Notes under the pieces: generated by a model
Told to the model about the DNA's origin: nothing
What the model saw: only the letters and a program-made list of their open reading frames with translations
Databases searched by the model: none
Made by a program: the position numbers and the translations under genes
Shown: one piece after another, positions 14,701 to 59,051 of the stretch
Layout of the letters: every line of letters begins with the position of its first letter
Position numbering within the stretch: position 1 is the stretch's first letter
IMG/VR virus record: IMGVR_UViG_3300029309_000017
Length of the DNA: 64,000 nt
Strand: one strand, 5' to 3'
Origin: an uncultured virus (IMG/VR IMGVR_UViG_3300029309_000017)
Lineage: Duplodnaviria > Heunggongvirae > Uroviricota > Caudoviricetes > Crassvirales

Positions 14701-17700
14701 TTAGGATCTGATTCATATGCTCGTAAAGAAACATCTAAATAACTACTAGGCGTATAACCTTCTGCAATCATTGTGTCAACATATTGTCTCAAAGAACCAG
14801 CCATAGCTTCAGCAGCTTTAGGATTATTTCTTAATGTTTCATTTAAAGCACCGTGTAGCACTTCGTGTTGAGCAACTGTTACTGCGCCAGCGTCTTCACT
14901 TTTACTTTCATTTATTATTATTTCTTGAGTACCGTCTTTGTATTGTACTATAAAACCATTATCACCTACTCTTTTTACACTTACTTTTTCGTCTTGATCT
15001 TCTTTCTTTTTACCTTTATTTCTTTCAGGTAGCGCTGCGTTTAGCTCGTCTATTTTTTCTTGAACTTTTTGATCCGCACTTTTAGTTACATTACCATCGG
15101 CATCAACATCGTCTTCATATGTATTATAGTTTATTCCAAGCTTATCAGCTGTTTTTCTAGCAGCTTCACTTGTTCTTCTATTTATCTCTTCTAAATTAGT
15201 ATTTACAGCACCTGTAGATATTGCGTTATCTATTTCTTTTATTCTCTCGTTTATACCATTTAAATCATAAGATGTTTCAACATTAACAGTTGTTTCAACA
15301 CCATCTATCATTTCTGTTTGTGTAGTATTAACAGTTGTTGTGCTGCTACCATCTGCGCTAACTCTTTTCTTAGCATCTATTAAAGCTTGTTTTTCCATGT
15401 ACAAATCTATTTCTTGATCTGTAACAAACTCACCACCTAATGATATTGCATTTTTTATATTAGTACCATGTTTTAAAGCTGCTTTAGCTGCGTCTAAGTC
15501 AGCCTTCATTCTAGCCGCTAACTTTTGATTGCCAGCTTTAAGAGCTCTATTATAGAAGTTTTCGTAAAAAGCAACATTGTCTTTAAGCCCATCCATTATG
15601 CCGTCAACATCAGCACGCATGTTTCTATAAACTTGTTTCTTAGTATTTTTATATAGACCTGGAGTAGTAACAGCACTTGTACCACCTGACAATAATACGG
15701 TACCTAAAACAGTTTCAAACTGCGTTTGCATGTTTAAAAACCCAGTGTTGTTAGAATATCCTAACATAATTTTAGAGAAGTCTGTAAGTAATAATTCAGC
15801 TTCTTCTTCACCAATCTCACCTATTAAGTTACTAAAAAACTGGCCTGTAACTTTTTTCATAGCCTCTCTATTGGCTGCGTTTTTTAAATCACCCTTAAAT
15901 GTATCTAACATTATTTTACCAGCGCCAGTGTTGAAAAAATTTCTATCAGGCATTATACTTTGCACGACGGCTGTTGCCAATGAAGCAGAGTTAGCATATA
16001 TAAGTCTTTGACCTTCTGTCATACCCATGTTTACAGCTTCATTATAGTTTTCATGCACTGTACCTAAATAAGCTCTTTCAGCCATACGAATAGTATTGTT
16101 GGTTATACCACCCGTACTATATCTACCGCCTTTAAGTATTTCTCTACCGCCAACAGTTAGTTTTGGCAGTTTAACACCCCAGTCTAATTTACCGTTTTTA
16201 GCAAATACTTTATAGCTATCTTTTAGTTTAGATACATCACCTTTTTTAACAGCAGCTGCTATAGCAAGAGTAAACGGTAGCATATCACTAACCATTTTTG
16301 AAGAGTTTCTCCAATTTATATTAGAAAATTTTTCACCAATTGATTCACCTTCAAATTCAGATCCAAAGTCACTTATACCAAACGTATTTTCTTTATAGTC
16401 TTGTTCAAATCTTCTATCAAAAAAATCAAGCCTAGCTCTTTCGTCGTCTACATCCATTCCGAACAAACCTTCGCCAGTATATAAAAGCAATCTATTAGCC
16501 ATGATTCCAGTACCAACAAAATACTCACCACCAAAATCTCTTATACCTTGTGTGTTCCCTGCGAAAAAATCATAAAAACCAGCATACCAAACGTCATTTT
16601 TTAACGCACTATCTCTCCACTCTTCAAACTCTTTTGTTGTTTCAAAATTTGGATTATTAAAAGCTTTTGTAGCTACATTAAAATCTAATTGACTAGTAAG
16701 AAAAGCTGCTTTGTCTTGTAAGTCATCAAACAACGCCTCGTATTTATCTATATCAGATTGAGTAGGATTTTCAATAGCTTCAGCTTCTGCTTGTAGTTTA
16801 TCAGATTCAAACTCTAATTTTTCATATTCAGAATTTAAAACAGCTATTTTAGCGGTTGATAATATTTCTTCTTTTTCTTCTAGCGTTAATGTAGATCGAT
16901 CCATTCCAAATGTTGATCCTGGTGGTCCTAATGCTTTTTCTATTATCTTTCTATCTGACATGATAATTTTAATGACTTGGTTTCTAACTTTCTCAGCCAT
17001 TTTTTCGTCTTCAGCAAACTTTATTATTTCTTGCTCTTCATCCCCTTGATAACCACCTCTATAAAGATCAAAGCCCTCACTAAAATCATCATCTGTTTTA
17101 GTTATTTCTTTTAATGTTTCTTCTATTACTCTATAATTTCTAGTTTCATAACCTTTAACACCAGGTGCTACGTACTCTGTAACATCACTCATTCTTAATC
17201 TAAAATCATCGCTAACCTTAGTATCATTGGTTTTAAATATTCTATTATAAAGATCTGGGTTTTTTTCTCTTATATATTTACGAACTTTATTACCGCCTTC
17301 AAGAGTTTTTATAATATTCTCTACAGCATAAACATCGTTGTTTCTTAAGTCGTTTAATAATTTATCTATACTTTGAGAGTCTTCTGCAGCTAAATTAATT
17401 GCTCTATCACCTTCAAACTCTGCTTCACTATATAAAGAAGCTCTTTGATCTTCAAGAATATCTTCAAGTTCTTTTACTAAATCATAACTTTCTTCATAAG
17501 ATTCATCAACTTCAAAACGTTTTTTATTAAAATAATATTGCTCTGACTCTCTTATTTTTATAAGTTTATTAATTTCATCTGCTCTTGAAAAAGAAGCCAT
17601 ATCTAGCTCTTCATCATTTTCAGATTCTTCTTCATATTTTTCTTTTAAAAACTTATCAAAATTATCTATGTAACTACCATCTACACCAACACTGGTTCTA

Positions 17701-18395
17701 AAAGCAGGATCAGTAACGCTTTCATATTCTTGCCTAAGTTCTTTTTCTAAGTCCTCATAGCGTTTTTTACCATTAGGATCAAAACCAATAATCTCATCAA
17801 CTGTAGGCATTGCCTTACCAAACTTTTTGTAAAAACCTTCTTCAGTTAACTTTTTTTCAAACTCTTCCTGTTCAAAAAGATTCCTCTTCTCTTCCTCCAT
17901 TATAGTACCCTCTTCAAGCTTCATCTCATAATATCTTGATGGGTTTTGTTTTTCAGGTAACTTGTGAAGTATACGAGTTTTAGGATCATAAGCATGTGTT
18001 CCTGATTTTACAAGTCTGTTTATTGTTTTATTATACTGTGTATTATCAGACCAGTTATAGTTGTTACCTTCTAATAAAGATTTAGACACTATCCAACCAT
18101 TTTCATCAAGGTTTAAACCCATGTATTTATTATCTGTTAAATCAACATCAACAGTGCTAGAATCATAAGCATACCTAGTCGAGTTTGATCCCGAAGAACC
18201 ATCGACCGAATCGGAGACCGTATTCTCTTCCGACCCTACACTTGTCTCCGCATTTGCAGGGTCTGATTGGTTTCCCGCTATAACTTGCGCGGAAAATGAT
18301 TTAGCCCATGTATCTAAATCAAGACCCATTGACTCAGCAGCGTTTACTGCTTCTTCTTCAGTGTATATTTTTTTACCTACTTTATAATCTGGCAT
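8793..18395 (-). CDS. Giant (3200 aa) internal virion / DNA-ejection polyvalent protein
   Basis: Position after tail genes; HEVLH zincin motif; HAD-like FDFDDT...FADD domain; helical C-terminus. Confidence 0.7.
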   Translation of the reverse strand: MPDYKVGKKIYTEEEAVNAAESMGLDLDTWAKSFSAQVIAGNQSDPANAETSVGSEENTVSDSVDGSSGSNSTRYAYDSSTVDVDLTDNKYMGLNLDENGWIVSKSLLEGNNYNWSDNTQYNKTINRLVKSGTHAYDPKTRILHKLPEKQNPSRYYEMKLEEGTIMEEEKRNLFEQEEFEKKLTEEGFYKKFGKAMPTVDEIIGFDPNGKKRYEDLEKELRQEYESVTDPAFRTSVGVDGSYIDNFDKFLKEKYEEESENDEELDMASFSRADEINKLIKIRESEQYYFNKKRFEVDESYEESYDLVKELEDILEDQRASLYSEAEFEGDRAINLAAEDSQSIDKLLNDLRNNDVYAVENIIKTLEGGNKVRKYIREKNPDLYNRIFKTNDTKVSDDFRLRMSDVTEYVAPGVKGYETRNYRVIEETLKEITKTDDDFSEGFDLYRGGYQGDEEQEIIKFAEDEKMAEKVRNQVIKIIMSDRKIIEKALGPPGSTFGMDRSTLTLEEKEEILSTAKIAVLNSEYEKLEFESDKLQAEAEAIENPTQSDIDKYEALFDDLQDKAAFLTSQLDFNVATKAFNNPNFETTKEFEEWRDSALKNDVWYAGFYDFFAGNTQGIRDFGGEYFVGTGIMANRLLLYTGEGLFGMDVDDERARLDFFDRRFEQDYKENTFGISDFGSEFEGESIGEKFSNINWRNSSKMVSDMLPFTLAIAAAVKKGDVSKLKDSYKVFAKNGKLDWGVKLPKLTVGGREILKGGRYSTGGITNNTIRMAERAYLGTVHENYNEAVNMGMTEGQRLIYANSASLATAVVQSIMPDRNFFNTGAGKIMLDTFKGDLKNAANREAMKKVTGQFFSNLIGEIGEEEAELLLTDFSKIMLGYSNNTGFLNMQTQFETVLGTVLLSGGTSAVTTPGLYKNTKKQVYRNMRADVDGIMDGLKDNVAFYENFYNRALKAGNQKLAARMKADLDAAKAALKHGTNIKNAISLGGEFVTDQEIDLYMEKQALIDAKKRVSADGSSTTTVNTTQTEMIDGVETTVNVETSYDLNGINERIKEIDNAISTGAVNTNLEEINRRTSEAARKTADKLGINYNTYEDDVDADGNVTKSADQKVQEKIDELNAALPERNKGKKKEDQDEKVSVKRVGDNGFIVQYKDGTQEIIINESKSEDAGAVTVAQHEVLHGALNETLRNNPKAAEAMAGSLRQYVDTMIAEGYTPSSYLDVSLRAYESDPNSVRAEEMLTFFSDGLTQGYFSFDENIFTKLGDVIRQAFQNIGIKNVRFDTGRDVYNFIKDYNKQMATGGLRGSLLKGAKKGFKGSLVDGIGAKSELEQITEKIFNAKQKGYGAAIVNLYTPVIKRLVFKSNKNLYNSTDQINQIRYLQSEVLNIVKNHSANSKNSLYDKISDLFKPTGTKSTTKSSKDLYSSTETIMGIEGMDAEQRVDYISNITKDQKTRLGQLVGFEYTNEVKKRLRKYNNIPGFKEVEDNILADITYGTTKTGKSGREIKVGGIVDIVERYSGEIELNRWINGQLDNKIQGIVNSYNLGKESVDFDTTSKNRKQTIKPRNYRKLKDSNLFSGVTLKELKTNVIKVVRVLKTSLNQKISKNVTIPPWIREFKKDIGKLNDLIIKQAMGGLKNNKLSNFLVKNKKAIVENATTTYLGTAIPNALEKSVDGKFTTDWKGKKIDFESSAETGRTSGIELARRKTDISDQDFLSNFGEVEIINGKPVLKKLKRGAKESLAKHLAEEMGLELIEADVEVQNELAKNQQKHNIVNASLDILQISREIKRGNAKSNRSAEQTQAMLFDLMDVAIKNGGSSDVYLRYKAELPNDVILLADEIGLDTYFDEGKTGFKAPLLEWSDTPPVFKPYIDTYRSTITAKSKDVSMKQLADFSEALIDVLPAELVSVLGDDMFAINYNYLDGADKKIKTGKPGKYNYLSKKRRGKAGQASNVKLPFNPSDIEIFNAGTGILKSIATILKKDISADQKRKQIQEKFGDRIAKAEVANIEALKYIMNEATMLIAKRPDLTPGFLRWLESSTSNAKAQRGLTRLPLIQYVDGSMKQDETHVFYDEAVQFAVNRSTNIYEGKSAKFKQETSLEDFIEQRLKNPKTSPEVHLRFKGEHVTPASEVMLELAKISLTTAARINKLGINPNSNSFAGQIESIKTFASLEMDKVLKDYNQTLGAELFSALQDDALGTTSKAGDFRGLAIDASKYNTFTTIDNIQAIEFIKREKLAIDFITELTSDLNINDYINQQNKAQAYDNALTRNKEKKGISVFDFDDTVARSSSKVLYTMPDGKKGKLSATEFAARSSELEAAGAKFDFSEFSKVVNGKPGPLTEKLRKAVDKFGNKNVFILTARPQSSAVAIQKFLKGLGINLKIQNITGLENGAPQAKANWIVAKAAEGYNDFYFADDAYKNVKAVQDALNVLDVKGKVQQAFVKSNQLDKDFNLILEQTTGVEANKNFSLAKAKIRGAGKGRFRFFLPPSAEDFMGLMYDFLGKGKLGEQQKKWIEDNLAKPYARGIAAYEVAKQAMQTQYRNLRRKFPEVRKKLNKTIPGTEFTYDQAVRVYLYNKSGYNIPGLSKADLKELNSIVNGDIELKTFADTLGLITNQKQGYMEPGEYWLTSSIAGDLDSINRNVKRKEFIKEFLENAEVIFSQKNLNKIQAIYGENFREALEDILYRMSNGTNRTFGKNRLVNTWSNWLNNSVGAIMFFNMRSAILQTLSTVNFINWTDNNPFKAAVAFANQKQYWADFAMIFNSPKLRERRRGLKTNVNEAELANAARGAKNKARAVFQYLLKLGFLPTQIADSFAISAGGATMYRNRVNTYLKQGMSKADAEAKAFEDFSMISEEAQQSSDPSLISQQQAGPLGRFILAFQNTPMQYMRLTKKAARDLVNGRGDWKTNTSKIIYYTFIQNLIFTSMQKALFALAFEEEDYKCEGKEGKALERCQNKNNKADVANGMLDTVLRGSGLYGAVIAAIKNGLRQYSKQEEKEFLADHTYTIIELLNLSPPLGSKARKIYSAIQTNRFEKDVIAERGYNLDSPKWSVIGNLVSGFTNLPLDRLVNKMNNIKAAFDDRNAAWKRIAFAMGWNTWDLAAAKNESHEQIKIEAKARRKEEGIKKAAETRRKNKIKEQKKLDNMSYDERIRYEDSIKQKNKKRGQKAAETRRRNKEIADSIALVSYMENIRKLKQQGKINQ
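18212..18276 (-). other. Predicted -1 ribosomal frameshift signal (G GGA AAC plus H-type pseudoknot)
   Basis: In-frame heptamer, 6-nt spacer, stem 1 GACCCTGCA/TGTAGGGTC, stem 2 CGGAGAC/GTCTCCG. Confidence 0.7.
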
Positions 18396-22756: not shown

Positions 22757-25700
22757 TTAACAATTGTTTAATGAATTTGTATTTACTATTGATGTTATAA
22801 TTCCGTTTTCATAAACTATAAACTTATAACCATCAGGATGGTTTGCCCAGTGTGAATTTGATACTAGGTTAACAATAAATATATACCACTGCACGCCTCC
22901 TCCAGGAATAGAAGTATCATTAAATAGAAGCACACCATCATCATTAGCACCTAAAGCAGTACCATCTTCATTATAAAGTTGAGTTCCTACTTGTATACCG
23001 TCTGACGCAAAGTATTTAAAATTAGTTCCTATTTGGTTAATATTTGTAGTGCCATAACCTCCGTTGCTTATATTTATAAAGTTTATTATAGCACACTTGG
23101 CTAGTTGTGGTCTAATATTTTGAGAGTCGCTTGAAAAATTAGTCATAAAATCTATATTATCTGTACCGCTGCTGTTACACATACCTGTTGTTACTCTAAA
23201 TTCAGCGTCTGGTTCTGGCGGCGCGCTACAAGAAGCTAATGTATTGTATTGAACTTTTGAAGTTATTTGACCGTTTTGAACAGTTATAATATAGTAATTA
23301 TTAGGTACCGACGTTGATGTATCATTTATATTTAAAGCAGAGTTATCAGGATCAGCAATAGCATCATTACCTACATCTATATATAAATATTTACCATTCC
23401 ACACTGTATCTACAATATCATAAGGCTCGTTGTTTTCAAACAAAGTTGTTCCTGTATTTACACCAGCGCTTGCAAAATAACTAAAGTCTCTAGCAGTCTT
23501 GCTTATATTAGTTTCGCCAACAGCGTATTGACTATAAAAAGCTTCTATAGCACATTTTACATTTTGATCTGTAGTTTCTAATCTAATATCAGTGTTATTG
23601 CCTTTACCAGACCATAAATACCAAAACCTATTAAACACGTCAGGGGTTTGATTACCAACAGTCGAGCAAGTGTTATCAATACTTACTGTAATATTAAATG
23701 TTGTTGGGGTTCCACCGCTAATATTAGCAACGCCTATACCTTGTGTTGGAAAAGAAGACGAATCAACATTATTGTCACAGTTATCATTGTAGAAAGTTTT
23801 TAAACCTTTTATCTTGTTAAAATATTTATTTTCTTTTTTAACAAACTCTTTTATTTGGCCCTCTTCTATATCGGTATTTATCCAATTAGTATACCAACCA
23901 GGCGTACTTGTTTCTTCGCTTATTTGACTTGGTGGTATTCTTTCGTCTATTATTCTAGCTAAACTTAAACCAGTTCTTCCAGTTGTTGTGTTATATTTAT
24001 ATGCTCTTGAGGCTGTTCCTGTGTAGTTTAGTGTCTTAAAACCTTTAATAGATTCATTAACATCGTTTATAACTACATTTACAGAACAATCATATTGTTG
24101 ACCATAAAAATTACTATAAATATCATTAGAAGCATGTTCCCATATTAAACCTTTATTGAAAGTGTAATATTTGTCGTTTATTGAAACACCACTTTCTAAA
24201 GGATATACAACGCCTCGTGTTGTTGAATAATAAGATTTTCTACTTGGCCAACCATCTACAGTTTCTTTAAATGACACTGTAGTTGTTTTTATATTGTCTG
24301 ATACATCATCAGGCACCTTACAATTTGTTTTATCTCTAGGTGTTGCAGATAGTTTATTTTGCCATTCTTCTGTTAAGTTGTCTAATGTTATATTGTAAAC
24401 CTCTTTATCGTCATTATAACTACCTATAATTTTATTACAAACAGGTAGATTATCAGAAAAGAAATCACTCATACCTTTTAATGCTATTTGAGTAATACCA
24501 TCTTGTGATAACCTTATGACTGTTCCTCTATTTTTATCAGCAAAATAACTTCTAAAACCATAATCAGCAAATGACTCTGGATTAGTACTTATACCAAACT
24601 CACCAGCATAAGGAACTGCTTGACCTAGCACAGCTTTGTTAGATGTGACATTAACATTGCCGTCTGCGTTAAATAGAGCATCTTTATTAGCCAATATACT
24701 TAAACACTTATCTTCACACAAAGTTACTAGATTAGTGTTCTTAGAATGCAGCTTTTGAATACTACCATATTCTGGGTTTAAGTCTTTTGTAATAGGTTCT
24801 GCTTGTATAAACTGATTAGTTCTATTTATTCCAGTTAATGAATTATATATACCAGAAAAAATTAAACCACTACTTCTTCTTTCTTCAGCATAAGGTCCTT
24901 CAAATATACTAGACACTTTAACACCTTTACCTATTTTAGCAGCATTAAAATCATCTCTAATCCTGTCTGATTCTACTGCATTACCAAATGAATAAACATT
25001 AAAATAATCTAAAGCTTTAGCAGATGTACCATTTATTTCACTTATTGGGTATGCTTTACTTGCTTCATAATATATATCAATATCTACAGCTTCTTTAGGT
25101 TCTGTTTCAAATATAGCTGGATTTGTAGAAGACAATATAGTATTATTTTCTCTAGTTTCTTCTTCAAGCAAATTAAACCCACCAACGTTTGCTATTAATT
25201 CTGCTTTAGTAGTACCAACCCAATCTTCAGTTATATCTTTATCTAGTATTAAACATAAAGAAAAATGATAATTCATATCTTTATCTTTTTGATTACTACA
25301 ATCAGCAGTCATGTTTTCTATAGCACCTCTAAAAGTACCATTTCTATAAGCTCTTTTTATAGTATAAACTTGAGATTTTTTTCCTGCATGTGAACCTCTA
25401 CCAAAAATTTCAACAGCTCTACCCTCTTGAGCATCTGTCATTGGTTGACCAACATAACCATCTCTATCTCCAAACTCATCTTCACTCAAGCTTTTTCTAC
25501 CAACATAAACAATAGATAAAACGTTGTTGTTTTGTCTTGGAGGATCATATACCTCCCACATCTTTTGATCTGGTCCCGGATCACTATTAGCTGGGCTTCC
25601 ATTGTAACCACCATTACCTTTACCATTACCACCATAAGCGCCACAAAGTTTATACTTACCATCTTCATTACCACCGCAAAAATTTGGAGGCACTCCGTCA

Positions 25701-28444
25701 AAATCAGTTTCACCTTCATCTCTCCAATAAAAACCTCTTTTCCAACCATCTCCATTAGGATTACTAAAGTTTTGAAAACAATTACCAAGACAATTCGCGC
25801 AATTTCCAGAACTAATCACGTCTGAGTTTTCTTTAATAGAACCAACTATGGAATAAGTTTTTTCTAAAGCTGCAAATGATTTTTCTATATTTGTTTCAAA
25901 ATCTGTATCTCTGTTTATTTTAACAAAAAATCTACCTTCATACTCTGGTAATCTTTCTATTTTATTTTCTAGTATTTTTATAGTCACATTAGTGTCTATA
26001 GCTAAACCATTAATACCCATAAAACTAGCAGAACTATCCATACCTTTATCAAGGTTTACTAAATATTCGTCACCAGCACTAGAAACTGGTCCACCACTAT
26101 CTATACCAAAAAGATCTGTTTTTGCACCACCAACTGTAATTTCTATAAATCTATCACCTTTAAATCCATTTCTAAAATCAGGATTTTCACTTATAGCTGG
26201 ACCTTCAAATCTTATTTGTGAAAAATCTTCAGCAAAACCAGCTTTAACTTTACATTCAGCTATACCAATTGCTTTAGGTGTAGTTGCGACAAAATCTGGA
26301 ACTTTACTAGATATATCCAATATTTTATATCTACAAGGACCTATTGAAGGATTATCATTATCGTGTTGTTTTTTAAGTATTAGATATGTTTCTTCATCAA
26401 CTTTGTTTCTTTCAGATGATGGAAAACTTAGCCAAACATTACCATCTTCAGCTGGATAAAATCTATCAAGAGCTAAATTATAATACTCATTGCTAATATC
26501 TTTAATAAAATACTTAGCATGTGTAATTTCTTGTGGTAAATTAACTTGGTTTAATTTAGCTAAAAACTTATTTGTTCTTTGAGCATTTTCTTTACCTAAA
26601 TTATAAGTTGCACTTGGATTTGTAAAAACAGGTGTTTGTCTACCGTATATATCTTGAAAAACAATACCAAGTTGATAATTTCTTATAGTTTTTATAGAAG
26701 GAAAAGGTCTTCTAAAATCTTGATTAGCAGGTGTTATTTCATTGCCGTTAGCGTCTAAGCCAGGACCTTCACCAGGATGCTCAGAACTATCTACATCTAA
26801 CTCTATTATACATTTAGGTGTAGTTATGTTTTGTACATAATTTGCGTATATTAATCTATTAGCAGATATTTCTTGAGCTAAAGCTTTTTTAGGAACATTA
26901 TCAAATGGTCTAAGTATTTGATTAGACTCTACTGTTTGACCAATTAATTCTGTTTTTAATTCAAAAGAAGTTACGCTTTTATCTTTTATAGTATCTACTA
27001 CATATATATTATTTGATCTAGATTTTTTAAATAGAATATCTAACTCAATAACCTCTTGACTACCCCAATCCCAGTCTTTTATTATTAAAGATCTTATATG
27101 GTTTTGCATACCTAAGTTAAAACCGTCAGAAGATAAATACTCAAAATCATCGCCTTCAAAAACAACTTCTGTAAAAGGTGAAAAACAAGAGTATTCATTG
27201 TTTTCATATTTCCATCTATATGCAAATCTGGGAAACTCAAACTCAAACATGGGGTCTTTTTCTTCTAATAAAGCCTCCCAAACAATTAAACCAACCGGTG
27301 TTTGTATTGTGTTTATTACTTCAAATGGACCAAATCTTAATATTTTTTTTGGTATAGACTGTATTTTACCTACTATGTATTGACCATTAACAGAATCTAT
27401 TTTTATTCTTATTTGATATTCATTTGTATTATTGTCATCATCAATATTACCACCGTTTAAAACTATTATATCGTCTTGTTGCCAAGAGTTTTGAACAGAT
27501 TGATTAAAAGGTCCTATAGTAACAGTTTCCATATTAGCTGGAAATACAGGGTCTGTCCCTTGTTCTGCGGCTAACTCTTGATCAGCAAGCCACTCTCCAT
27601 ATGTTGGTAATGGTCTAAATTGAGCTGCTAAAAAAGTTGTTGATGGCTCGTTAACATATGTAAAATTATACCATAAAGGAGCTATTGGTTCGCCATCTAT
27701 ATTGTTTTCACTACCACCAGCGCCTAATGCACTACCGTCATAAGTTACAGTTACTGGCGTTACACCTGTACCAGGTAATTCTTGCCCAGCGGCAGATCTA
27801 GTGGATGTTGATATATCTATTTTAGGAGCATATAATGGTGATTTTTTAATAACAGTAATATCTGCTTCTGTAAAATCAGTGCCAGAAGAATTATATGTCC
27901 AATCCTGTGAAGAAGAATCAAAAGTAGGTATTTTAGTGTGTATGTTAAAAGAAGTTGAATTTGTACCTGCTTTAAATTTTTTTATATTTATTTTTTTAGG
28001 CTCTGTTTTATTGTCTGTAAAAAACAATAAATCATCAACTATGTTTATACCTGTTATGTGTTGATCTTTTGTAAAATTTAATATATTTTTTGTATCAATT
28101 AATATAGGTGATACAATTTTTGTTTTAGTATTATATTCTGCTATTGTACTAATACTATCACTAGCTATAAACCAATATATGCACTCAGTTGGCTCGTGTC
28201 TTATAGAACCTATACAAACAGGATTAGAATAACTACTTATATAATTGCTTGACCAGTTTTGATCAGGCGTATAGCCTTTTCTTTCTGTATTACCTTTTAG
28301 GTTTTGTAAAGCACCAACATTGCTGGACTCGGATGTAGCAACTGTTACGTTTAAAGCATCACGGTAACTTCCATTGGGAACCATTCTCTCGTCAAGATCA
28401 CCTTCCATCTTGCCGCGAGTAAAGTTATGAATAAATTCTGGCAT
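22757..28444 (-). CDS. Tail stabilisation / nozzle protein
   Basis: N-terminal F..G.M..DLDERMVPNG.YRDALN motif; beta-propeller-like; 1895 aa. Confidence 0.7.
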   Translation of the reverse strand: MPEFIHNFTRGKMEGDLDERMVPNGSYRDALNVTVATSESSNVGALQNLKGNTERKGYTPDQNWSSNYISSYSNPVCIGSIRHEPTECIYWFIASDSISTIAEYNTKTKIVSPILIDTKNILNFTKDQHITGINIVDDLLFFTDNKTEPKKINIKKFKAGTNSTSFNIHTKIPTFDSSSQDWTYNSSGTDFTEADITVIKKSPLYAPKIDISTSTRSAAGQELPGTGVTPVTVTYDGSALGAGGSENNIDGEPIAPLWYNFTYVNEPSTTFLAAQFRPLPTYGEWLADQELAAEQGTDPVFPANMETVTIGPFNQSVQNSWQQDDIIVLNGGNIDDDNNTNEYQIRIKIDSVNGQYIVGKIQSIPKKILRFGPFEVINTIQTPVGLIVWEALLEEKDPMFEFEFPRFAYRWKYENNEYSCFSPFTEVVFEGDDFEYLSSDGFNLGMQNHIRSLIIKDWDWGSQEVIELDILFKKSRSNNIYVVDTIKDKSVTSFELKTELIGQTVESNQILRPFDNVPKKALAQEISANRLIYANYVQNITTPKCIIELDVDSSEHPGEGPGLDANGNEITPANQDFRRPFPSIKTIRNYQLGIVFQDIYGRQTPVFTNPSATYNLGKENAQRTNKFLAKLNQVNLPQEITHAKYFIKDISNEYYNLALDRFYPAEDGNVWLSFPSSERNKVDEETYLILKKQHDNDNPSIGPCRYKILDISSKVPDFVATTPKAIGIAECKVKAGFAEDFSQIRFEGPAISENPDFRNGFKGDRFIEITVGGAKTDLFGIDSGGPVSSAGDEYLVNLDKGMDSSASFMGINGLAIDTNVTIKILENKIERLPEYEGRFFVKINRDTDFETNIEKSFAALEKTYSIVGSIKENSDVISSGNCANCLGNCFQNFSNPNGDGWKRGFYWRDEGETDFDGVPPNFCGGNEDGKYKLCGAYGGNGKGNGGYNGSPANSDPGPDQKMWEVYDPPRQNNNVLSIVYVGRKSLSEDEFGDRDGYVGQPMTDAQEGRAVEIFGRGSHAGKKSQVYTIKRAYRNGTFRGAIENMTADCSNQKDKDMNYHFSLCLILDKDITEDWVGTTKAELIANVGGFNLLEEETRENNTILSSTNPAIFETEPKEAVDIDIYYEASKAYPISEINGTSAKALDYFNVYSFGNAVESDRIRDDFNAAKIGKGVKVSSIFEGPYAEERRSSGLIFSGIYNSLTGINRTNQFIQAEPITKDLNPEYGSIQKLHSKNTNLVTLCEDKCLSILANKDALFNADGNVNVTSNKAVLGQAVPYAGEFGISTNPESFADYGFRSYFADKNRGTVIRLSQDGITQIALKGMSDFFSDNLPVCNKIIGSYNDDKEVYNITLDNLTEEWQNKLSATPRDKTNCKVPDDVSDNIKTTTVSFKETVDGWPSRKSYYSTTRGVVYPLESGVSINDKYYTFNKGLIWEHASNDIYSNFYGQQYDCSVNVVINDVNESIKGFKTLNYTGTASRAYKYNTTTGRTGLSLARIIDERIPPSQISEETSTPGWYTNWINTDIEEGQIKEFVKKENKYFNKIKGLKTFYNDNCDNNVDSSSFPTQGIGVANISGGTPTTFNITVSIDNTCSTVGNQTPDVFNRFWYLWSGKGNNTDIRLETTDQNVKCAIEAFYSQYAVGETNISKTARDFSYFASAGVNTGTTLFENNEPYDIVDTVWNGKYLYIDVGNDAIADPDNSALNINDTSTSVPNNYYIITVQNGQITSKVQYNTLASCSAPPEPDAEFRVTTGMCNSSGTDNIDFMTNFSSDSQNIRPQLAKCAIINFINISNGGYGTTNINQIGTNFKYFASDGIQVGTQLYNEDGTALGANDDGVLLFNDTSIPGGGVQWYIFIVNLVSNSHWANHPDGYKFIVYENGIITSIVNTNSLNNC

Positions 28445-28447
28445 GTA

Positions 28448-29614
28448 TTAGTGTTTTATTTGTTTTGATTTACCTCTCATTATTTGAGTAAGCTCCTCAG
28501 ATTTTAAATTTGATAATCTTATTTTAGCTAATCTTGTTGCTGCAAACTTTTCTCTTTTAAACCTATTTATTAAATACTCTTGAGTATTAGCTCTTGTAGA
28601 TAATATTGCTAATGCGATATGTTTATATAAGGCTTCTTCTGCAAATTTATGAACTATCATTTCGTTGTCAGTTCCTAAAGAATCACTTATGTACTTAAGT
28701 GTTATTATTTTACCATTTAAACTAGAGTCAAAGTATATTTTACCTCTTAAGTTATCTATAAAATAAACTCCATTTGCGTTAGAAAACTCAGGATTTAATC
28801 CATATCTGTTACCTTCTAAACCCCTGTATCTTTCAAACTCGTCTAAAGTGTCGTCGTTTGTTACATTTCTATTAGTAGCGTCTCTAAATTTATCCCAAGT
28901 TTCAGAGTCAAAAGCTGTTAGTAATGTTCCATCATTGTCAAACGTATAATTAAAATCACTGTCTTGTATTATAGCTTCTGGATTACTAGTCTTTCTACTA
29001 GGCATTAGTATTCTTTCAACACCGTCATTATCAACCCATGAAACTTTAACGTAATTAACATAATCATGTGGTAATTTCATAGTTAATGATGGTGGTATTT
29101 CTATTTCTTGTGATTTAAAAGATTTTAATGTGTCATAACTTAGTTCAGCTAAACCTCTTTGAGCATGAAAAGCAACATCAGTTCTTCTTATCTTACTTAT
29201 TATTTTATCTTCACCAACATATGATATTATAAAGTTATTTATAATATCTTCTAGCGAAACATATTGATAATTACCATATTCTTCTGTAGGTATTATTTCT
29301 TGAAACAATATAGGTAAGGTAGCTAATGGTGATCCGTCAGCAGCTTGTATATCTGTATTTACGTTACTGTTATTAAAAACTATGTTAAAACTATTATCCG
29401 CAGTTGTGTCACCTGGACTAGTTCCATTATAAGAATAACTGTTTTTACTAACTTCTATTTCGTTTATAAAAACTCTAATCTGAGATTGTTGAGTAGGTCT
29501 AGTAGGAAAGAAAGCAGTGGTAACTGGGCCATATGTAAGATTGCCTGCTCCTAAACCAGTAAAGCCTTGCGTTTGCTGATAATAACCTTGTTGTGTTCCT
29601 TGAAATAATGGCAT
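28448..29614 (-). CDS. Tail tubular / adaptor protein
   Basis: LPHDYVNYV motif; position. Confidence 0.6.
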   Translation of the reverse strand: MPLFQGTQQGYYQQTQGFTGLGAGNLTYGPVTTAFFPTRPTQQSQIRVFINEIEVSKNSYSYNGTSPGDTTADNSFNIVFNNSNVNTDIQAADGSPLATLPILFQEIIPTEEYGNYQYVSLEDIINNFIISYVGEDKIISKIRRTDVAFHAQRGLAELSYDTLKSFKSQEIEIPPSLTMKLPHDYVNYVKVSWVDNDGVERILMPSRKTSNPEAIIQDSDFNYTFDNDGTLLTAFDSETWDKFRDATNRNVTNDDTLDEFERYRGLEGNRYGLNPEFSNANGVYFIDNLRGKIYFDSSLNGKIITLKYISDSLGTDNEMIVHKFAEEALYKHIALAILSTRANTQEYLINRFKREKFAATRLAKIRLSNLKSEELTQIMRGKSKQIKH

Positions 29615-53668: not shown

Positions 53669-53701
53669 TTACAAAAGTAATACGGCGCCATATAGATAAT
53701 A
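53669..53701 (+). promoter_or_regulatory. Early promoter-like repeat 1
   Basis: TTACAAA-N3-AATACG-N9-AGATAATA. Confidence 0.75.
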
Positions 53702-54136: not shown

Positions 54137-54214
54137 GGGTAACTACATGGACAGTAGCGTATGTGCACCGGAGTTTTTGTGTGTCGCGTAGAGGTTCGAC
54201 TCCTCTCTTATCCA
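54137..54214 (+). ncRNA. tRNA-like RNA with G3.U70 and degenerate anticodon arm
   Basis: GGGTAA/TTATCC-A acceptor, CATG/TATG D-stem, AGAGG-TTCGACT-CCTCT T-arm. Confidence 0.6.
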
Positions 54215-54236
54215 CTAACTAATATAATATAACACT

Positions 54237-54914: not shown

Positions 54915-55086
54915 ATATAAAAAACTATGAATAAAATAAAATTTCTCAATAACAATCACGTTAAAATAACTACTAATAAAGGCGTTGCAATACTAACTAA
55001 AACTAATTATACTAAAATATACGACAAAGAATCTAAAAAATACGTATCTTTAACAATACCTTTTTACAAAATAAACAATAATTACT

Positions 55087-55284
55087 ATGTCTAACACACC
55101 AAAAAATATGAAAGAACTATGCGAGTACGTAGCTAACAAGCGTAAATCTCGCAGCCACAATCACCTTGAAATGATTAAAATATATGGTGCTTGTAAAGGT
55201 ATGGGTAATAGAAAATATAAACTACCGCAAAAATCTGTTTGGCCTAAGCAACATAAAGCGGCTTATAATAAAATATGGAGATGA
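55087..55284 (+). CDS. Early hypothetical protein
   Basis: ORF track. Confidence 0.55.
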   Translation: MSNTPKNMKELCEYVANKRKSRSHNHLEMIKIYGACKGMGNRKYKLPQKSVWPKQHKAAYNKIWR

Positions 55285-55478
55285 GTGAAATAAAAAAATA
55301 TATAAACAACGAATTAAGTAAACTAGATCGTGGTATAGTGGCTACGCCTACAGAAGATTACCTTGACAAGTTTGCAGAAGCAAACAACGGAAGTAATGAC
55401 TTATTACTAATGCAATTAGCTAAAAACTATGGCTACAAACTAGCTTTACTTGAAATACTAGATGAAATAAATGAGTAA
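55275..55478 (+). CDS. Early hypothetical protein
   Basis: ORF track. Confidence 0.55.
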   Translation: MEMSEIKKYINNELSKLDRGIVATPTEDYLDKFAEANNGSNDLLLMQLAKNYGYKLALLEILDEINE

Positions 55479-55635
55479 AATGAAAGAACTAGATTTGATT
55501 GCACAAGGTGTAGCAGATCACATTAAAGAAATTATAGAAGATAGTGTCGATTGGCAGTTAGCTGACATACCTCTTGAAGGCGATGACTATAATGACTGTA
55601 AAGAATATGTAATAAATGTTGCACTTAATAAATTA

Positions 55636-55668
55636 TTACAAAAATAATACGAATCAAATCAGATAATA
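55636..55668 (+). promoter_or_regulatory. Early promoter-like repeat 5
   Basis: Same consensus and spacing. Confidence 0.75.
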
Positions 55669-55678
55669 TAATAAAATT

Positions 55679-55867
55679 ATGTATTGTAAATGTGGTAAAA
55701 TAGTACACCCTGTACGCTTAGAATTAGGTTATAAAACATGTGTTTCATGTAGTACGACGAAAACGTACTCTTACGTGCCAATAATCGAGCACAAAACAGG
55801 TAATACAATACAAATCGTTAGCCAAGAAGTAAGTGCGTCAGTGCACAGAGCTTGGCGGCGCAAGTAG
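55679..55867 (+). CDS. DksA/TraR-like C4 zinc-finger protein
   Basis: CKCG..VHPVRL...TCVSC. Confidence 0.6.
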   Translation: MYCKCGKIVHPVRLELGYKTCVSCSTTKTYSYVPIIEHKTGNTIQIVSQEVSASVHRAWRRK

Positions 55868-55869
55868 TT

Positions 55870-56104
55870 GGAAGGTGCTGCTGTTAGCGGCAGACTACTT
55901 AAAAAGCTACATGATTAAAGGCGAACTTGATTCGGCTCGATGATTGTAGTTTGTGAAGAACAACCACAGCTTGAAATAGTAGTGCACGGTTGTGAAGCAG
56001 GTACAGTATCACGGATTGCAGAGTAATTAACTGCATGCACGGTGGAAGTCCGACTGCGAATGTGATGAGTAATAATGCAAGTGTATGAGGTTCTTAGCCC
56101 TCCA
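55870..56104 (+). ncRNA. Structured RNA of about 235 nt closed by an acceptor-like stem
   Basis: GGAAGGT/GCCCTCC-A ends; multiple internal hairpins; GC-richer non-coding gap. Confidence 0.45.
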
Positions 56105-56147
56105 CTAAAAATACTCAAATAGAATTTGCATAGATAACTGTACTTAT

Positions 56148-56224
56148 GGGCGTGAAATGGTTAGACTACGCACCAGGGTTTCCCATGGTTGGTAGTAACG
56201 CAGGTTCGATTCCTGCCACGTCCA
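56148..56224 (+). ncRNA. tmRNA tRNA-like-domain-like mini RNA (G3.U70, A73)
   Basis: GGGCGTG/CACGTCC-A acceptor; stemless D-loop AAATGGTTAGAC; GCAGG-TTCGATT-CCTGC T-arm. Confidence 0.65.
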
Positions 56225-56229
56225 CTAAC

Positions 56230-56373
56230 AGGGTAAAACACGAAGGACGGTAAGCATAACACCAAAAGCATCATGTGGTGCCGACTATCGACGGATATAA
56301 GCGAGCGTACGGAAGTGTATTATGTGAGGTGGCAAACCTCAGAAAGCGTGGATACGTGCACAGTATCACCCTT
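56230..56373 (+). ncRNA. Putative structured RNA
   Basis: AGGGT/ACCCT closing stem; TGAGGT-GGCAA-ACCTCA and GATAC/GTATC hairpins. Confidence 0.35.
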
Positions 56374-56391
56374 AATATTAAATTTAAAATT

Positions 56392-56760
56392 ATGAATTGG
56401 AAACAAGAACAACTAGCACTAGAAGATGCGTTTGTAAGACAAATGCTTATTAACTACAACATTAAAGAAGTAACCACACAGCGTCAAGCTATAAACGGTA
56501 CAAGAATATTTATTTGTCCTGATGGTCAGTTACTCGGCTCATACAAAAGCGGTTACGTTAGAAGATGTGACAGTAGCGATAGAATATGGCAATTAAACCC
56601 TAAATACAAGCGTAAAGTAAGATATGTATTTCTTAAAAGTAAAGGCTTAGTTACTGAAGAACATGATATGTGGTCAAGAGCACTGATCTATTCTGGCATA
56701 GCTAGATTGAACTTTTTACTTCAATATTACTTAAAAAATTACAAAACAAATACGAAATAA
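56392..56760 (+). CDS. Early hypothetical protein
   Basis: Likely start MNWKQEQ; SYKSGYVR motif. Confidence 0.65.
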   Translation: MNWKQEQLALEDAFVRQMLINYNIKEVTTQRQAINGTRIFICPDGQLLGSYKSGYVRRCDSSDRIWQLNPKYKRKVRYVFLKSKGLVTEEHDMWSRALIYSGIARLNFLLQYYLKNYKTNTK

Positions 56761-56771
56761 ATCAGATAATA
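56739..56771 (+). promoter_or_regulatory. Early promoter-like repeat 6
   Basis: Same consensus and spacing. Confidence 0.75.
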
Positions 56772-56783
56772 TAATAAACGAAT

Positions 56784-57023
56784 ATGAAAACAGTTTGGAA
56801 TACATTAAAACCTTTGTATCAAAACAAAATTAAAGAAAATACTCGTACATATAGCTCTGCTAAAAGACTTAAATACAAGTTGATGTCTGCTAGTGGTTGG
56901 TATGATTTATCTATGCGTGACATACAAGGTATACTTACATACACTGATAAATATACTCACGAGATTACAGCAACAGATATTATGTACGGTACAGAATTTT
57001 TAAAACCAGAAGACAATGAGTGA
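56784..57023 (+). CDS. Early hypothetical protein
   Basis: ORF track. Confidence 0.6.
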   Translation: MKTVWNTLKPLYQNKIKENTRTYSSAKRLKYKLMSASGWYDLSMRDIQGILTYTDKYTHEITATDIMYGTEFLKPEDNE

Positions 57024-57282
57024 CTCAGTAAAAGCATGGCATGAAATGCAAGAAGAAAAAATAGTAGCAAAAGAATTAGGAGAACACATACCTAGATTTA
57101 TATTTCTACTAGATTTTAATGATGGTAATGTATATAGATATGACATTAGCGCATTATGTAACGAAGAAAATAGTTGGAATCCTGACTCAGAGTCTTGTGA
57201 AGCGTTTTTATACGGCGCAGGTCACAAAGTAAGTGACTGTGAGTGGATGGTAACAACAACAAGTAAAATAACAATTAAATAA
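57016..57282 (+). CDS. Early hypothetical protein
   Basis: ORF track. Confidence 0.6.
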   Translation: MSDSVKAWHEMQEEKIVAKELGEHIPRFIFLLDFNDGNVYRYDISALCNEENSWNPDSESCEAFLYGAGHKVSDCEWMVTTTSKITIK

Positions 57283-57287
57283 TAAAT

Positions 57288-57752
57288 ATGGCAGAACTAT
57301 TAACAGATGATATTATCATCGAAAAACTAAACGAAGATGGCTATATGCAGGAGCCGGATGGCCCTTGGATATTAGAATATATCTATGAAAATCATGGCGG
57401 TAAATTAGATACTACAAGTGACTTTGTAGATAACAAATGGACTTTAAAAATATACAGTGAATGTACTTACGATTCTTATGATATATACTTTTGTACTTTT
57501 GACGATAGACCTTATGTATCACAAGATGGTTATTATTATGAAAATTATTCTGATTGGTCAGACAGAGCATTAGAAGAATTAGTTAACGGTACAGATGTAT
57601 GGGTAGATCCTAATCTATGGTCAGACATGGAATATGACTTTAACTACAGACTAGAAGAGTGGTGGCAAGATGTATACGAAGAATTATCAGACGAAAAGAA
57701 AGAAGAATTATTAGACTCAGAAGATTATTATGAAGAAAAGGAAACTGAATAG
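57288..57752 (+). CDS. Highly acidic early protein
   Basis: D/E/Y/W-rich composition. Confidence 0.65.
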   Translation: MAELLTDDIIIEKLNEDGYMQEPDGPWILEYIYENHGGKLDTTSDFVDNKWTLKIYSECTYDSYDIYFCTFDDRPYVSQDGYYYENYSDWSDRALEELVNGTDVWVDPNLWSDMEYDFNYRLEEWWQDVYEELSDEKKEELLDSEDYYEEKETE

Positions 57753-57862
57753 TACTAATCCAAAGTACATGAAGCAAGTGGCTGATAATCAACCAGTTGT
57801 AAAAGAAAAAAGATTAATTAGTAACAAAGGTAAGATTAAAGCTTACGCAATATTTTTAGAAA

Positions 57863-58123
57863 ATGACAGAGACTAAACAAATACTACCTAAATGGTTTAA
57901 TGGTGAAGTATATACTGACGGCGGTATAGTATCAAATCCTTTTACAGGTATTGAAGTAGAACTAACAGCTGAGGAATTATCTATATATGATTTCATAAAA
58001 GGCGCTGAATACTATATAGCTATATCAGGTAAACAAAACGATAAACTAGCAGACGAGATGCATAAAGGCTTGATGTGGTTTGCAAAGAACAACATTGAAG
58101 CTTATATGACATTACTCGACTAA
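57863..58123 (+). CDS. Early hypothetical protein
   Basis: V.NPFTG..VELTAEE.SIYD.IKG...AYMTLLD. Confidence 0.65.
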   Translation: MTETKQILPKWFNGEVYTDGGIVSNPFTGIEVELTAEELSIYDFIKGAEYYIAISGKQNDKLADEMHKGLMWFAKNNIEAYMTLLD

Positions 58124-58135
58124 TGCTATACACAT

Positions 58136-58209
58136 TGCGCGGTAGAGCAGTTGGCCAGCTCGCGAGCCTCATAAGCTCGAGGTCGGTGGTTCGAATCCAC
58201 CCTGCGCAC
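58136..58209 (+). tRNA. tRNA-Met(CAT), no encoded CCA
   Basis: Full cloverleaf: TGCGCGG/CTGCGCA, GAGC/GCTC, CGAGC-CTCATAA-GCTCG, GGTGG-TTCGAAT-CCACC. Confidence 0.9.
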
Positions 58210-58223
58210 CTAAAATTTAAATT

Positions 58224-58787
58224 ATGGCAACAAGAAACTTAATAATGGTCGTAGACCGTAAACACAGTAGTAAATACCCAGAAGGCTTTGCTATTCACCC
58301 AGATCTTGTACGTGACAAGAGCTATGTTAACATGTATATGCACCACGATGGTTATCCTGAGTGGCAAGGCGTACAAATTGCTAACTGGTTACTAACAAGT
58401 AACAATGGATGCATGGATGGCGCTAGGTTAGCTGGTAAATTAGTGCATGATATGTATTATGATAGTTGTTACTTATATAGTGACGCACAGCAAATAGATC
58501 ACGAGTATAGATATGTAATATGGAGCGGTAATAAAGATAAAATACATGTAAGCTGCTGGAATATGTACAAAAGCGAGTGTGTGTTCGTGTTAAAACCACA
58601 TAAAATTATATCTAAATATATGGCAGATATGGATTACACTGATTTTTCTATTGGTGAAACTAGATTATCACAGCAAGAATTTAAACGTGATGCAGGTTTA
58701 GAGTTTCATACAAAAGAAGAAATAGAGAAATATAATAAAGTTAGAGCTAACGCTCAGTCAATCATAGATATACTAACTACAAAATAA
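58224..58787 (+). CDS. Early protein with YxHxDGYP motif
   Basis: MATR start, YMHHDGYPE. Confidence 0.7.
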   Translation: MATRNLIMVVDRKHSSKYPEGFAIHPDLVRDKSYVNMYMHHDGYPEWQGVQIANWLLTSNNGCMDGARLAGKLVHDMYYDSCYLYSDAQQIDHEYRYVIWSGNKDKIHVSCWNMYKSECVFVLKPHKIISKYMADMDYTDFSIGETRLSQQEFKRDAGLEFHTKEEIEKYNKVRANAQSIIDILTTK

Positions 58788-58809
58788 ATACGAAACAAAT
58801 CGGATAATA
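58777..58809 (+). promoter_or_regulatory. Early promoter-like repeat 7
   Basis: CTACAAA-N3-AATACG-N9-GGATAATA. Confidence 0.7.
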
Positions 58810-59051
58810 TGACAAACAACGATATTGAAAAAATAGCTCAGCGTGTTGCTGAGTTAGTTATTGCAGAGTTATTATTTAATGCTGATACGCTAGTAGTTCC
58901 TACAAAGAAAACATCTGAAGAGGAATTACTAGCTGAATTAGCAGCTGCAATGACTAAATTAGACTTCGAGCTTCAGCGTGAAAACTATGAAGCTTGTAAA
59001 GTTCTAAAAGATAAGATAACAGAAATAGAAAAAAAATTAAAAAACCTATGA
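58809..59051 (+). CDS. Small protein with UVR-like C-terminal motif
   Basis: ENYEACKVLKDKI. Confidence 0.55.
   Translation: MTNNDIEKIAQRVAELVIAELLFNADTLVVPTKKTSEEELLAELAAAMTKLDFELQRENYEACKVLKDKITEIEKKLKNL

Follow-up and report, generated by a model that had tools for sequence, protein, structure and literature searches.

A probable tmRNA-derived, tag-less tRNA-like RNA family in uncultured marine phages of flavophage type

The 64,000-nt stretch of the uncultured virus record IMGVR_UViG_3300029309_000017 (hereafter, the window) carries on its plus strand, at positions 56148-56224, a small element which, together with the CTA tail that follows it (to 56227), comprises 80 nt. It very probably encodes a functional RNA derived from transfer-messenger RNA (tmRNA), of which the tRNA-like domain (TLD) alone has been retained. 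The preliminary description of this DNA had proposed an alanine-identity TLD without an mRNA domain, and this assignment is borne out by the better score of the tmRNA model over the tRNA model, by covariation of the P2 stem and by the retention of G3:U70 and A73. The same structural reading is supported by sister copies at the same site, which exceed the Rfam cut-off for tmRNA. Taken as a whole, the observations are on balance best explained, by analogy with a published phage case, by a tag-less mini-tmRNA gene that would compete with the host tmRNA and damp tagging. The kind of RNA is already known, whereas the marine-flavophage family is new in its clade, its fixed slot, its occupancy (55 of 80 loci) and the signs of selection on G3:U70.

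Structure of the element

Reading from the 5′ end (all features are on the plus strand), the element starts with the GGGCGTG strand of the acceptor stem (56148-56154), which pairs with CACGTCC at 56217-56223, seven base pairs in all. Alignment to RF00023, the Rfam family of tmRNA, puts G3 (56150) opposite U70 (56221), and the acceptor pairs are invariant in 21/21 close family members. The next segment, AAATGGTTAG (56155-56164), is a stemless D-loop analogue, which corresponds to RF00023 positions 8-20, is the counterpart of the 'deformed D-arm' of tmRNA and is nearly invariant in the family alignments. Folding then yields the P2 stem ACTAC/GTAGT (56165-56169 with 56192-56196), closed by an irregular hairpin of 22 nt (56170-56191) that occupies the place of the mRNA-like domain and pseudoknots. 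The linker AAC (56197-56199), an analogue of the variable loop seen in most of the 21 distinct sequences, leads to the T arm GCAGG-TTCGATT-CCTGC (56200-56216), again placed by the RF00023 alignment, and the discriminator A at 56224 is followed by CTA (56225-56227) instead of an encoded CCA. The 7-bp acceptor, G3:U70, discriminator A, canonical T arm, missing D stem and irregular hairpin listed in the preliminary description were all found in the sequence.

The computed RNA fold matches this shape at −33.5 kcal/mol, compared with −21.4 ± 3.3 kcal/mol for shuffled sequences (n = 200, z = −3.72, 0/200 as good). The element has neither a D stem nor a 7-nt anticodon loop; it also has no resume codon, tag reading frame or pseudoknots, as only 22-24 nt separate the P2 strands. 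Lacking both the codon and the frame, it is predicted to be unable to mark proteins for proteolysis. The idea that it represents an attP fragment of ssrA was rejected, since both acceptor halves are present and paired.

Scores of tmRNA and tRNA models

In a permissive scan of 4 kb, RF00023 aligned over its whole length with 56148-56227 (36.7 bits, E = 2.6e−12), with 24 nt replacing the 318 consensus positions of the middle, and was the best match among families of the tRNA clan. An Rfam E-value scan of positions 55000-59000 returned nothing convincing beyond tmRNA and tRNA, the other matches (18-25 bits) being far under their cut-offs. The Rfam gathering cut-offs are 47 bits for RF00023 and 29 bits for RF00005 (tRNA). 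Mini elements in the contigs of four relatives scored 28.9-41.9 bits with the tmRNA model versus 13.9-26.0 bits with the tRNA model, whereas true tRNAs of a Bacteroidetes metagenome-assembled genome (MAG) showed the reverse pattern (44.9-77.5 bits with the tRNA model, at most 28.4 bits with the tmRNA model). Moreover, a subfamily with the acceptor GGGGGTG/CACCTCC, found in the same slot and only 80-82 nt long, reached 64.7-65.7 bits on the tmRNA model (3/9 loci scanned), and its ends are closely like those of the TLD of a 362-nt tmRNA-like gene in the Cellulophaga phages phi38:1 and Calle. Since this subfamily lies above the cut-off and resembles the TLD of a full-length phage gene, the window copy is best seen as a more diverged member of a tmRNA-derived locus.

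ARAGORN, run on the whole window, did not call the element, its sole call being tRNA-Met at 58136-58210, and Rfam at gathering thresholds likewise reported only this tRNA-Met. ARAGORN also passed over every copy in the loci of 19 relatives. An ordinary tRNA, which the preliminary description had named as the competing outcome, is thus not what these tools find: ARAGORN makes no call, and in relatives the tRNA model stays below its cut-off. Standard annotation (ARAGORN, Rfam at gathering thresholds) therefore overlooks such genes.

Covariation and alanine identity

Covariation was counted over 70 distinct sequences realigned to R1, a family covariance model built from 21 sequences, in alignments that lean somewhat toward the model structure. 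Paired cells amount to 95.3%, compared with 76.8% in shuffles, and fall to 41-52% when the partner is slid by 1-3 columns; the covariation score is 0.455 versus 0.113, a value reached by 0/500 shuffles. All five P2 pairs and four of the five T-stem pairs change on both sides, which answers in the affirmative the earlier suggestion to look for covariation across related phages.

Conservation of G3:U70, to which the preliminary description had tied the alanine assignment, is equally clear. The third acceptor pair is G3:U70 in 67/70 distinct homologues, while the neighbouring pair 4:69 varies (C:G in 56, G:C in nine, A:U in four and U:A in one). When only the syntenic site is considered (47 distinct sequences), G3:U70 is present in 46/47 and A73 in 47/47. 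Selection for the determinant of alanyl-tRNA synthetase (AlaRS) predicts just this pattern, in which a wobble pair persists next to a pair that covaries. According to PMC3985003, tmRNA invariably has G-U as its third acceptor pair, which serves as the determinant for AlaRS, and SmpB is contacted extensively by the deformed D-arm of the TLD. In the aligned sequences, selection to retain the alanine identity pair is visible.

Gene family and its slot

Pattern scans fixing only part of the D-loop analogue and the T loop were run on viral contigs, metagenome contigs and small MAG contigs; some of the 28 loci from the metagenome scan were ordinary tRNA-Leu genes with the same D-loop words. These scans yielded 21 distinct sequences of the family, all of which have the acceptor stem, the D-loop analogue and the T loop in common. 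P2 occurs among them in at least 10 different, fully compensated versions, and the middle is hypervariable (19-43 nt). One contig holds two copies 480 nt apart, flanking an open reading frame (ORF) and a tRNA.

Just upstream of the element lies a 62-aa CxC..CxxC ORF (P0001; 55679-55867, plus strand), for which no Pfam or PHROGs family was found and which served as the synteny anchor. At least 171 viral contigs hold a relative of it, and the 80 best of these (77-95% amino acid identity, hence not a random sample) were retrieved. R1 located the element within 700 nt downstream of the ORF in 55/80 loci, 75/80 loci being evaluable (at least 300 nt present there). ORF and element are 3-502 nt apart (median 208), and the relatives' elements measure 68-129 nt (median 83). 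The same design is thus repeated in a fixed early-gene slot of a large uncultured marine phage clade with structural genes like those of Flavobacteriia phages. Neither a full-length tmRNA nor one of any other length was found at this slot in sister phages without an R1 match, only tRNAs (Rfam, E ≤ 0.01; 13 of the 20 evaluable R1-negative loci scanned).

Among cultured phages, megablast with a 2-kb query found nothing, and blastn with 111 nt produced only matches of T-arm size, in 6/50,697 records. There was no RF00023 match in MW202828.1, the closest GenBank phage by terminase, and no copy beyond a T-loop fragment in Flavobacterium phage elemoA and Tenacibaculum phage Gundel.

The 80-81-nt element is 100% identical in two relatives (L035 and L003) whose flanking genes are only 75-78% identical to those of the window. 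This identity bears on the view that the element is a functionless leftover, either a decaying remnant of a phage tmRNA or an odd tRNA with an insertion in the anticodon arm. In its favor, the distantly related cultured flavophages phi38:1 and Calle carry a full-length tmRNA-like gene, and a tRNA of MW202828.1 does have a 46-nt insert in its anticodon arm. However, apart from the preserved identity, compensatory changes affect three helices and the element is present in 55/75 evaluable relatives, while the absence of a D stem and of a 7-nt anticodon loop, together with the tRNA-model scores of relatives (below 29 bits), speaks against an odd tRNA. We consider either form of this view extremely improbable.

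The surroundings of the element bring up another explanation, namely, that its tRNA-like shape is RNA punctuation only. It would be a cutting signal for host RNase P and 3′ trimming enzymes, comparable to plant mitochondrial t-elements, that splits the early transcript or sets the ends of neighbouring structured RNAs, the excised RNA itself having no job. Consistent with this, the element sits in ~520 nt devoid of ORFs, with an ORF of the same promoter-to-promoter unit on either side, amid short conserved non-coding modules that are shuffled among relatives, and tRNA genes often adjoin it: they lie at 3-24 nt in L003, L178 and L146, and tRNA-Met is found closely downstream in 7/19 relatives' loci. 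In the window, tRNA-Met (CAT anticodon; 58136-58210, plus strand) is recovered by both ARAGORN and Rfam. Nevertheless, processing enzymes read shape rather than identity, yet G3:U70, A73 and the D-loop analogue are fixed amid covarying 4:69, T stem and P2. In addition, sister copies exceed the curated tmRNA threshold, and the spacer, at anywhere between 3 and 502 nt, is too variable to define a fixed mRNA end. Punctuation as the sole function is accordingly very unlikely. tRNA-Ala and t-elements do share with the element the acceptor/T-arm shape, G3:U70, A73 and a place among tRNA genes within a transcription unit; the element differs from them in having no D stem and no anticodon arm, and its identity elements seem to be fixed beyond what cutting needs.

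Comparison with known tmRNAs

The terminase and portal of the window are nearest to those of phages of Flavobacterium, Cellulophaga, Maribacter and Tenacibaculum (87 records), with the uncultured MW202828.1 as the best terminase match (62% identity). On protein similarity alone, the host would be of Flavobacteriia type.

The closest published counterpart is the 'TLD only' tmRNA, devoid of a coding sequence, of Mycobacterium phage DS6A (PMC4131195, Table 2 and text; PMC11915505), located at 28478-28560 of JN698994.1 and unannotated in that record. At 83 nt versus 80 nt, the two elements are alike in having a 7-bp acceptor with G3:U70, a stemless D-loop analogue, P2 closed by ~20 nt, a T arm and an ACTA tail, and both score below the RF00023 cut-off (43.2 bits for DS6A). 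The differences lie in the setting, as DS6A is an actinophage and the window a marine flavophage-type podovirus, i.e. an unrelated lineage with a host of another phylum, and in the sequence itself. Furthermore, DS6A is a single published case, whereas the window family occupies a fixed slot in 55/80 best relatives. In the literature searched, DS6A was the sole case of a tag-less phage tmRNA, mentioned in two tmRNA-database papers only, and nothing was found for 'mini-tmRNA'. The DS6A form is reported by PMC4131195 and PMC11915505 to be inhibitory in E. coli, and the role considered below is assigned by analogy with it.

With the standard tmRNA (RF00023) the element shares the acceptor with G3:U70, A73, the D-loop analogue, P2 and the T arm. 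Bacteroidia tmRNAs, in contrast, are 358-408 nt long and encode tags such as GENNYALAA, while the element is devoid of pseudoknots, resume codon and tag frame. Full-length tmRNA was found in 54/61 sampled Bacteroidia genomes. The genes are mostly without an encoded CCA, as are the tRNA-Met of the window, the DS6A element and the phi38:1 tmRNA, in which CTA follows instead; therefore, the CTA tail is normal in this setting. The acceptor GGGCGTG/CACGTCC is identical in full-length tmRNAs of three Chloroflexi MAGs. Recent capture of a host tmRNA was considered but is not supported, identity to the ends of 30 Bacteroidia tmRNAs being just 7-13/19 at the 5′ end and 16-22/28 at the 3′ end. We also looked for a remnant of the tag frame in the middle: that of L004 is tag-like by eye, but 57/100 shuffles reach its score, and in a comparison of 21 middles with 31 Bacteroidia tmRNA interiors none beat the shuffles, the best being reached by 13/100, and the idea was rejected.

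The 362-nt tmRNA-like genes of the Cellulophaga phages phi38:1 (NC_021796.1, 26803-27164) and Calle (MT732432.1, 42950-43311) score 86.6-87.6 bits. These phages are distant relatives of the window phage (portals 37% identical), and the TLD of their genes resembles the GGGGGTG subfamily and ends in ACTA; unlike the mini form, however, the genes keep a long middle domain. 'One tmRNA gene' is mentioned for a Cellulophaga phage in PMC8776804. A quick ORF listing of the phi38:1/Calle gene showed no frame ending in a host-type ..ALAA tag. Separately, Maribacter phage Panino has a 92-nt element (26.1 bits) resembling the 3′ half of tmRNA.

Frame-less tmRNAs are described for organelles as well (PMC11915505), namely, in jakobid mitochondria (RF02544) and as ~65-bp forms in Mallomonadaceae plastids; they are likewise TLD-only, with SmpB encoded elsewhere, and can be regarded as analogues in function. 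Those forms are the sole tmRNA of their cell or organelle, whereas the window RNA would be an extra viral copy entering a cell with its own full tmRNA.

Proposed role

Under the explanation that we favor, the element would descend from a tmRNA of which the TLD alone was retained, the short hairpin replacing the pseudoknots and tag frame. It would be transcribed alongside early genes from the promoter-like repeat at ~55636-55675, excised by host tRNA-processing enzymes and provided with CCA after A56224. Host AlaRS is then predicted to charge it with alanine and host SmpB to bind it. By competing with the host tmRNA for SmpB, and also for AlaRS, EF-Tu and stalled ribosomes, it would damp trans-translation and proteolytic tagging during infection. 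No SmpB was detected by Pfam among 61 window products (56 of the 65 ORFs of at least 70 aa plus five shorter ones). PHROGs assigns a named function to seven of the nine other ORFs in that size class, the last two being giant ORFs. SmpB is also absent from the records of five relatives, three of which are at least 90% complete. With no phage SmpB found, the element would have to use that of the host. As for precedent, a DS6A-like molecule, chargeable or not, is said in PMC4131195 to strongly inhibit tmRNA, perhaps via titration of SmpB, and PMC11915505 states that the DS6A form inhibits the endogenous tmRNA in E. coli. That inhibition of host tagging is the main effect here has, in our estimate, an even chance of being correct.

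As regards expression, RNA libraries show no more than the presence of such sequences. Small shares (0.07-0.17) of the 1171-nt stretch around the element are contained in 24 sequencing runs. In four RNA libraries from four studies, contigs identical or nearly identical to the window cover the upstream non-coding modules, for example, a 160-nt contig over 55874-56033 with zero differences. At the element itself, contigs match only its first 8-15 nt, running in from upstream (libraries X1 and X2), or its last 32 nt (X4), and differ from it beyond that, which indicates that they derive from relatives. The interior, 56163-56196, is uncovered in the four runs; this is neutral, since contigs drop small RNAs and DNA can contaminate RNA libraries. 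As a side observation, short contigs from marine RNA libraries pile up at the 3′ end of the 62-aa ORF (55784-55867, plus strand), with summed depths of 12,529 in X2, 1,116 in X3 and 977 in X4, and neighbouring modules are only tens to hundreds deep; these sums include relatives and are no measure of expression, although the site may hold an abundant stable RNA end.

Several points weigh against a mini-tmRNA that damps host tagging. The window copy falls under the curated RF00023 cut-off, and 20/75 evaluable relatives have no detectable copy, so that the element is dispensable. Its D-loop and 3′ linker are unlike those of host-class tmRNAs (AAAUGGUUAGAC and AAC versus GGUUUUGAC and UUUGGAC in Bacteroidia), and SmpB binding is consequently not assured. 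Charging, CCA addition, SmpB binding and the mature RNA are all predictions from sequence determinants. The RNA-library contigs that touch the element, coming from relatives, could be precursor RNA or DNA. Finally, the precedent for inhibition concerns E. coli rather than a flavobacterial host and comes by way of the citing papers PMC4131195 and PMC11915505.

The conserved determinants can also be read in favor of tag-free rescue, in which the alanine-charged mini-tmRNA, together with host SmpB and EF-Tu, would enter ribosomes stalled on broken mRNAs and accept the nascent chain; a single alanine would be added, the chain released by other host factors and the ribosome freed, without tagging, for the translation of phage mRNA. 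Every element needed for charging and for entry into the A site is conserved, a TLD-only tmRNA is reported to accept the peptidyl group in vitro (PMC3895274), and PMC11915505 argues that a frame-less mitochondrial tmRNA co-occurring with SmpB is still useful on incomplete mRNAs. The position in the early block would fit too, this being the stage at which breakdown of host mRNA would be expected. However, no release step is known for a peptidyl-TLD on an mRNA-less ribosome, which could equally be a dead end, and the DS6A-like form is described in PMC4131195 as inhibitory whether chargeable or not. Although the present data do not separate rescue from inhibition, we regard rescue as rather unlikely.

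The presence of this design in a fixed slot of a large clade, with the alanine pair retained, suggests that phages interfere repeatedly with ribosome rescue and protein tagging and that DS6A is no isolated curiosity. The family also offers concrete RNAs for work on flavobacterial AlaRS and SmpB.

Other tRNA-like elements

A second anticodon-less tRNA-like gene of alanine type is found in the window at 54137-54217 (plus strand). Its acceptor GGGTAAC/..TTATCC has G3:U70 and one C-C mismatch, and A73 is followed by CTA. This gene has a real 4-bp D arm, and its anticodon arm is replaced by an irregular hairpin of 32 nt. It reaches 23.6 bits with R1, folds at −20.2 kcal/mol and is reported neither by Rfam (E ≤ 1) nor by ARAGORN. 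At L150:384-490 and L114/L115:89-195 lie homologues in which the middle measures 58 nt and the T stem covaries.

Micro forms of 43 nt, consisting of a 6-bp acceptor, AATGGTTAA, a T arm and ACTA, occur ~1.6-1.9 kb downstream of the main copy in four contigs (L183:4529-4571, L129:4534-4576, L130:4361-4403 and L127:4261-4303); some have G3:U and some A3:U. A second-site subfamily (L163:4432-4525 and L140:4647-4743) has the acceptor AGGCGTG/CACGCCT with G3:C70 and discriminator T, and is thus without alanine identity. In MW202828.1 (L001), two odd tRNA-like genes lie in tandem at 523-630 and 637-697, one of them scoring 47.3 bits as a tRNA with the 46-nt anticodon-arm insert and the other 37.2 bits with 5 nt replacing the anticodon arm. 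Finally, a 150-nt tmRNA-like element with the same acceptor pair and a long P2 (45.4 bits on R1) was detected on the minus strand of a 2.6-Mb contig of an Anaerovoracaceae MAG (L051:699-848); it may be a shortened tmRNA of a bacterial chromosome or prophage.

The invariant scaffold with its hypervariable middle of 19-43 nt, the several paralogous or miniature versions per genome and the second G3:U70 gene in the same window lend some support to an anti-defence decoy. Here, the alanine-type acceptor/T-arm scaffold would soak up a host nuclease or sensor of tmRNA or tRNA-Ala, e.g. defence proteins with SmpB-like domains or RNase R, and the variable middle would reflect an arms race. For context, SmpB-like domains that might bind tmRNA are predicted in CoCoNuT defence systems (PMC11090510), and a phage protein is reported to use tRNA and tmRNA fragments against CRISPR accessory nucleases (PMC11662646). 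Yet these hosts are not known to have any defence system directed at tmRNA or tRNA-Ala. No partner emerged from the neighbouring genes, none of which matched a family, and the variable middle could equally be unconstrained sequence. We hold the decoy to be highly improbable. In a broader version, which appears quite unlikely, the anticodon-less alanine-identity RNAs (the element, the 54137-54217 gene, the 43-nt micro forms and the tandem copies) would make up a viral toolkit reaching beyond titration of SmpB, either as a defence decoy with an arms-race middle or as a supply of alanyl-RNA for a reaction outside normal translation.

Genomic setting

The window, with ~33% G+C, encodes a terminase, a portal, GroEL/GroES, a ribonucleotide reductase, a ligase, Erf and an exonuclease. 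Its structural block includes two giant ORFs on the minus strand, of 3200 aa (8793-18395) and 1895 aa (22757-28444). The element lies on the plus strand in a block of small early-type ORFs, and the ORF-free stretch around it is richer in G+C. None of 13 early ORF products matched a Pfam or PHROGs family. A bipartite motif, TTACAAA..ATACGAA..AGATAATA, precedes early ORFs in seven plus-strand copies, at 53669, 53820, 54513, 54882, 55636, 56739 and 58777, and could act as a promoter. The copy nearest upstream of the element (55636-55675, plus strand) and the next one at 56739 bracket the unit of the element.

The ORF-free flanks, 55868-56147 and 56228-56391 (plus strand), are a mosaic of short modules that are reordered among relatives. 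For example, the module at 56273-56322 is found upstream of the element in L035, and that at 56006-56053 directly upstream in L029 and L036. A hairpin at ~56086-56107 resembles a degenerate T arm and precedes CTA; in L053 and L029 the element has intact versions of this hairpin (TGAGGTTCGAWTCCTCACTA) upstream.

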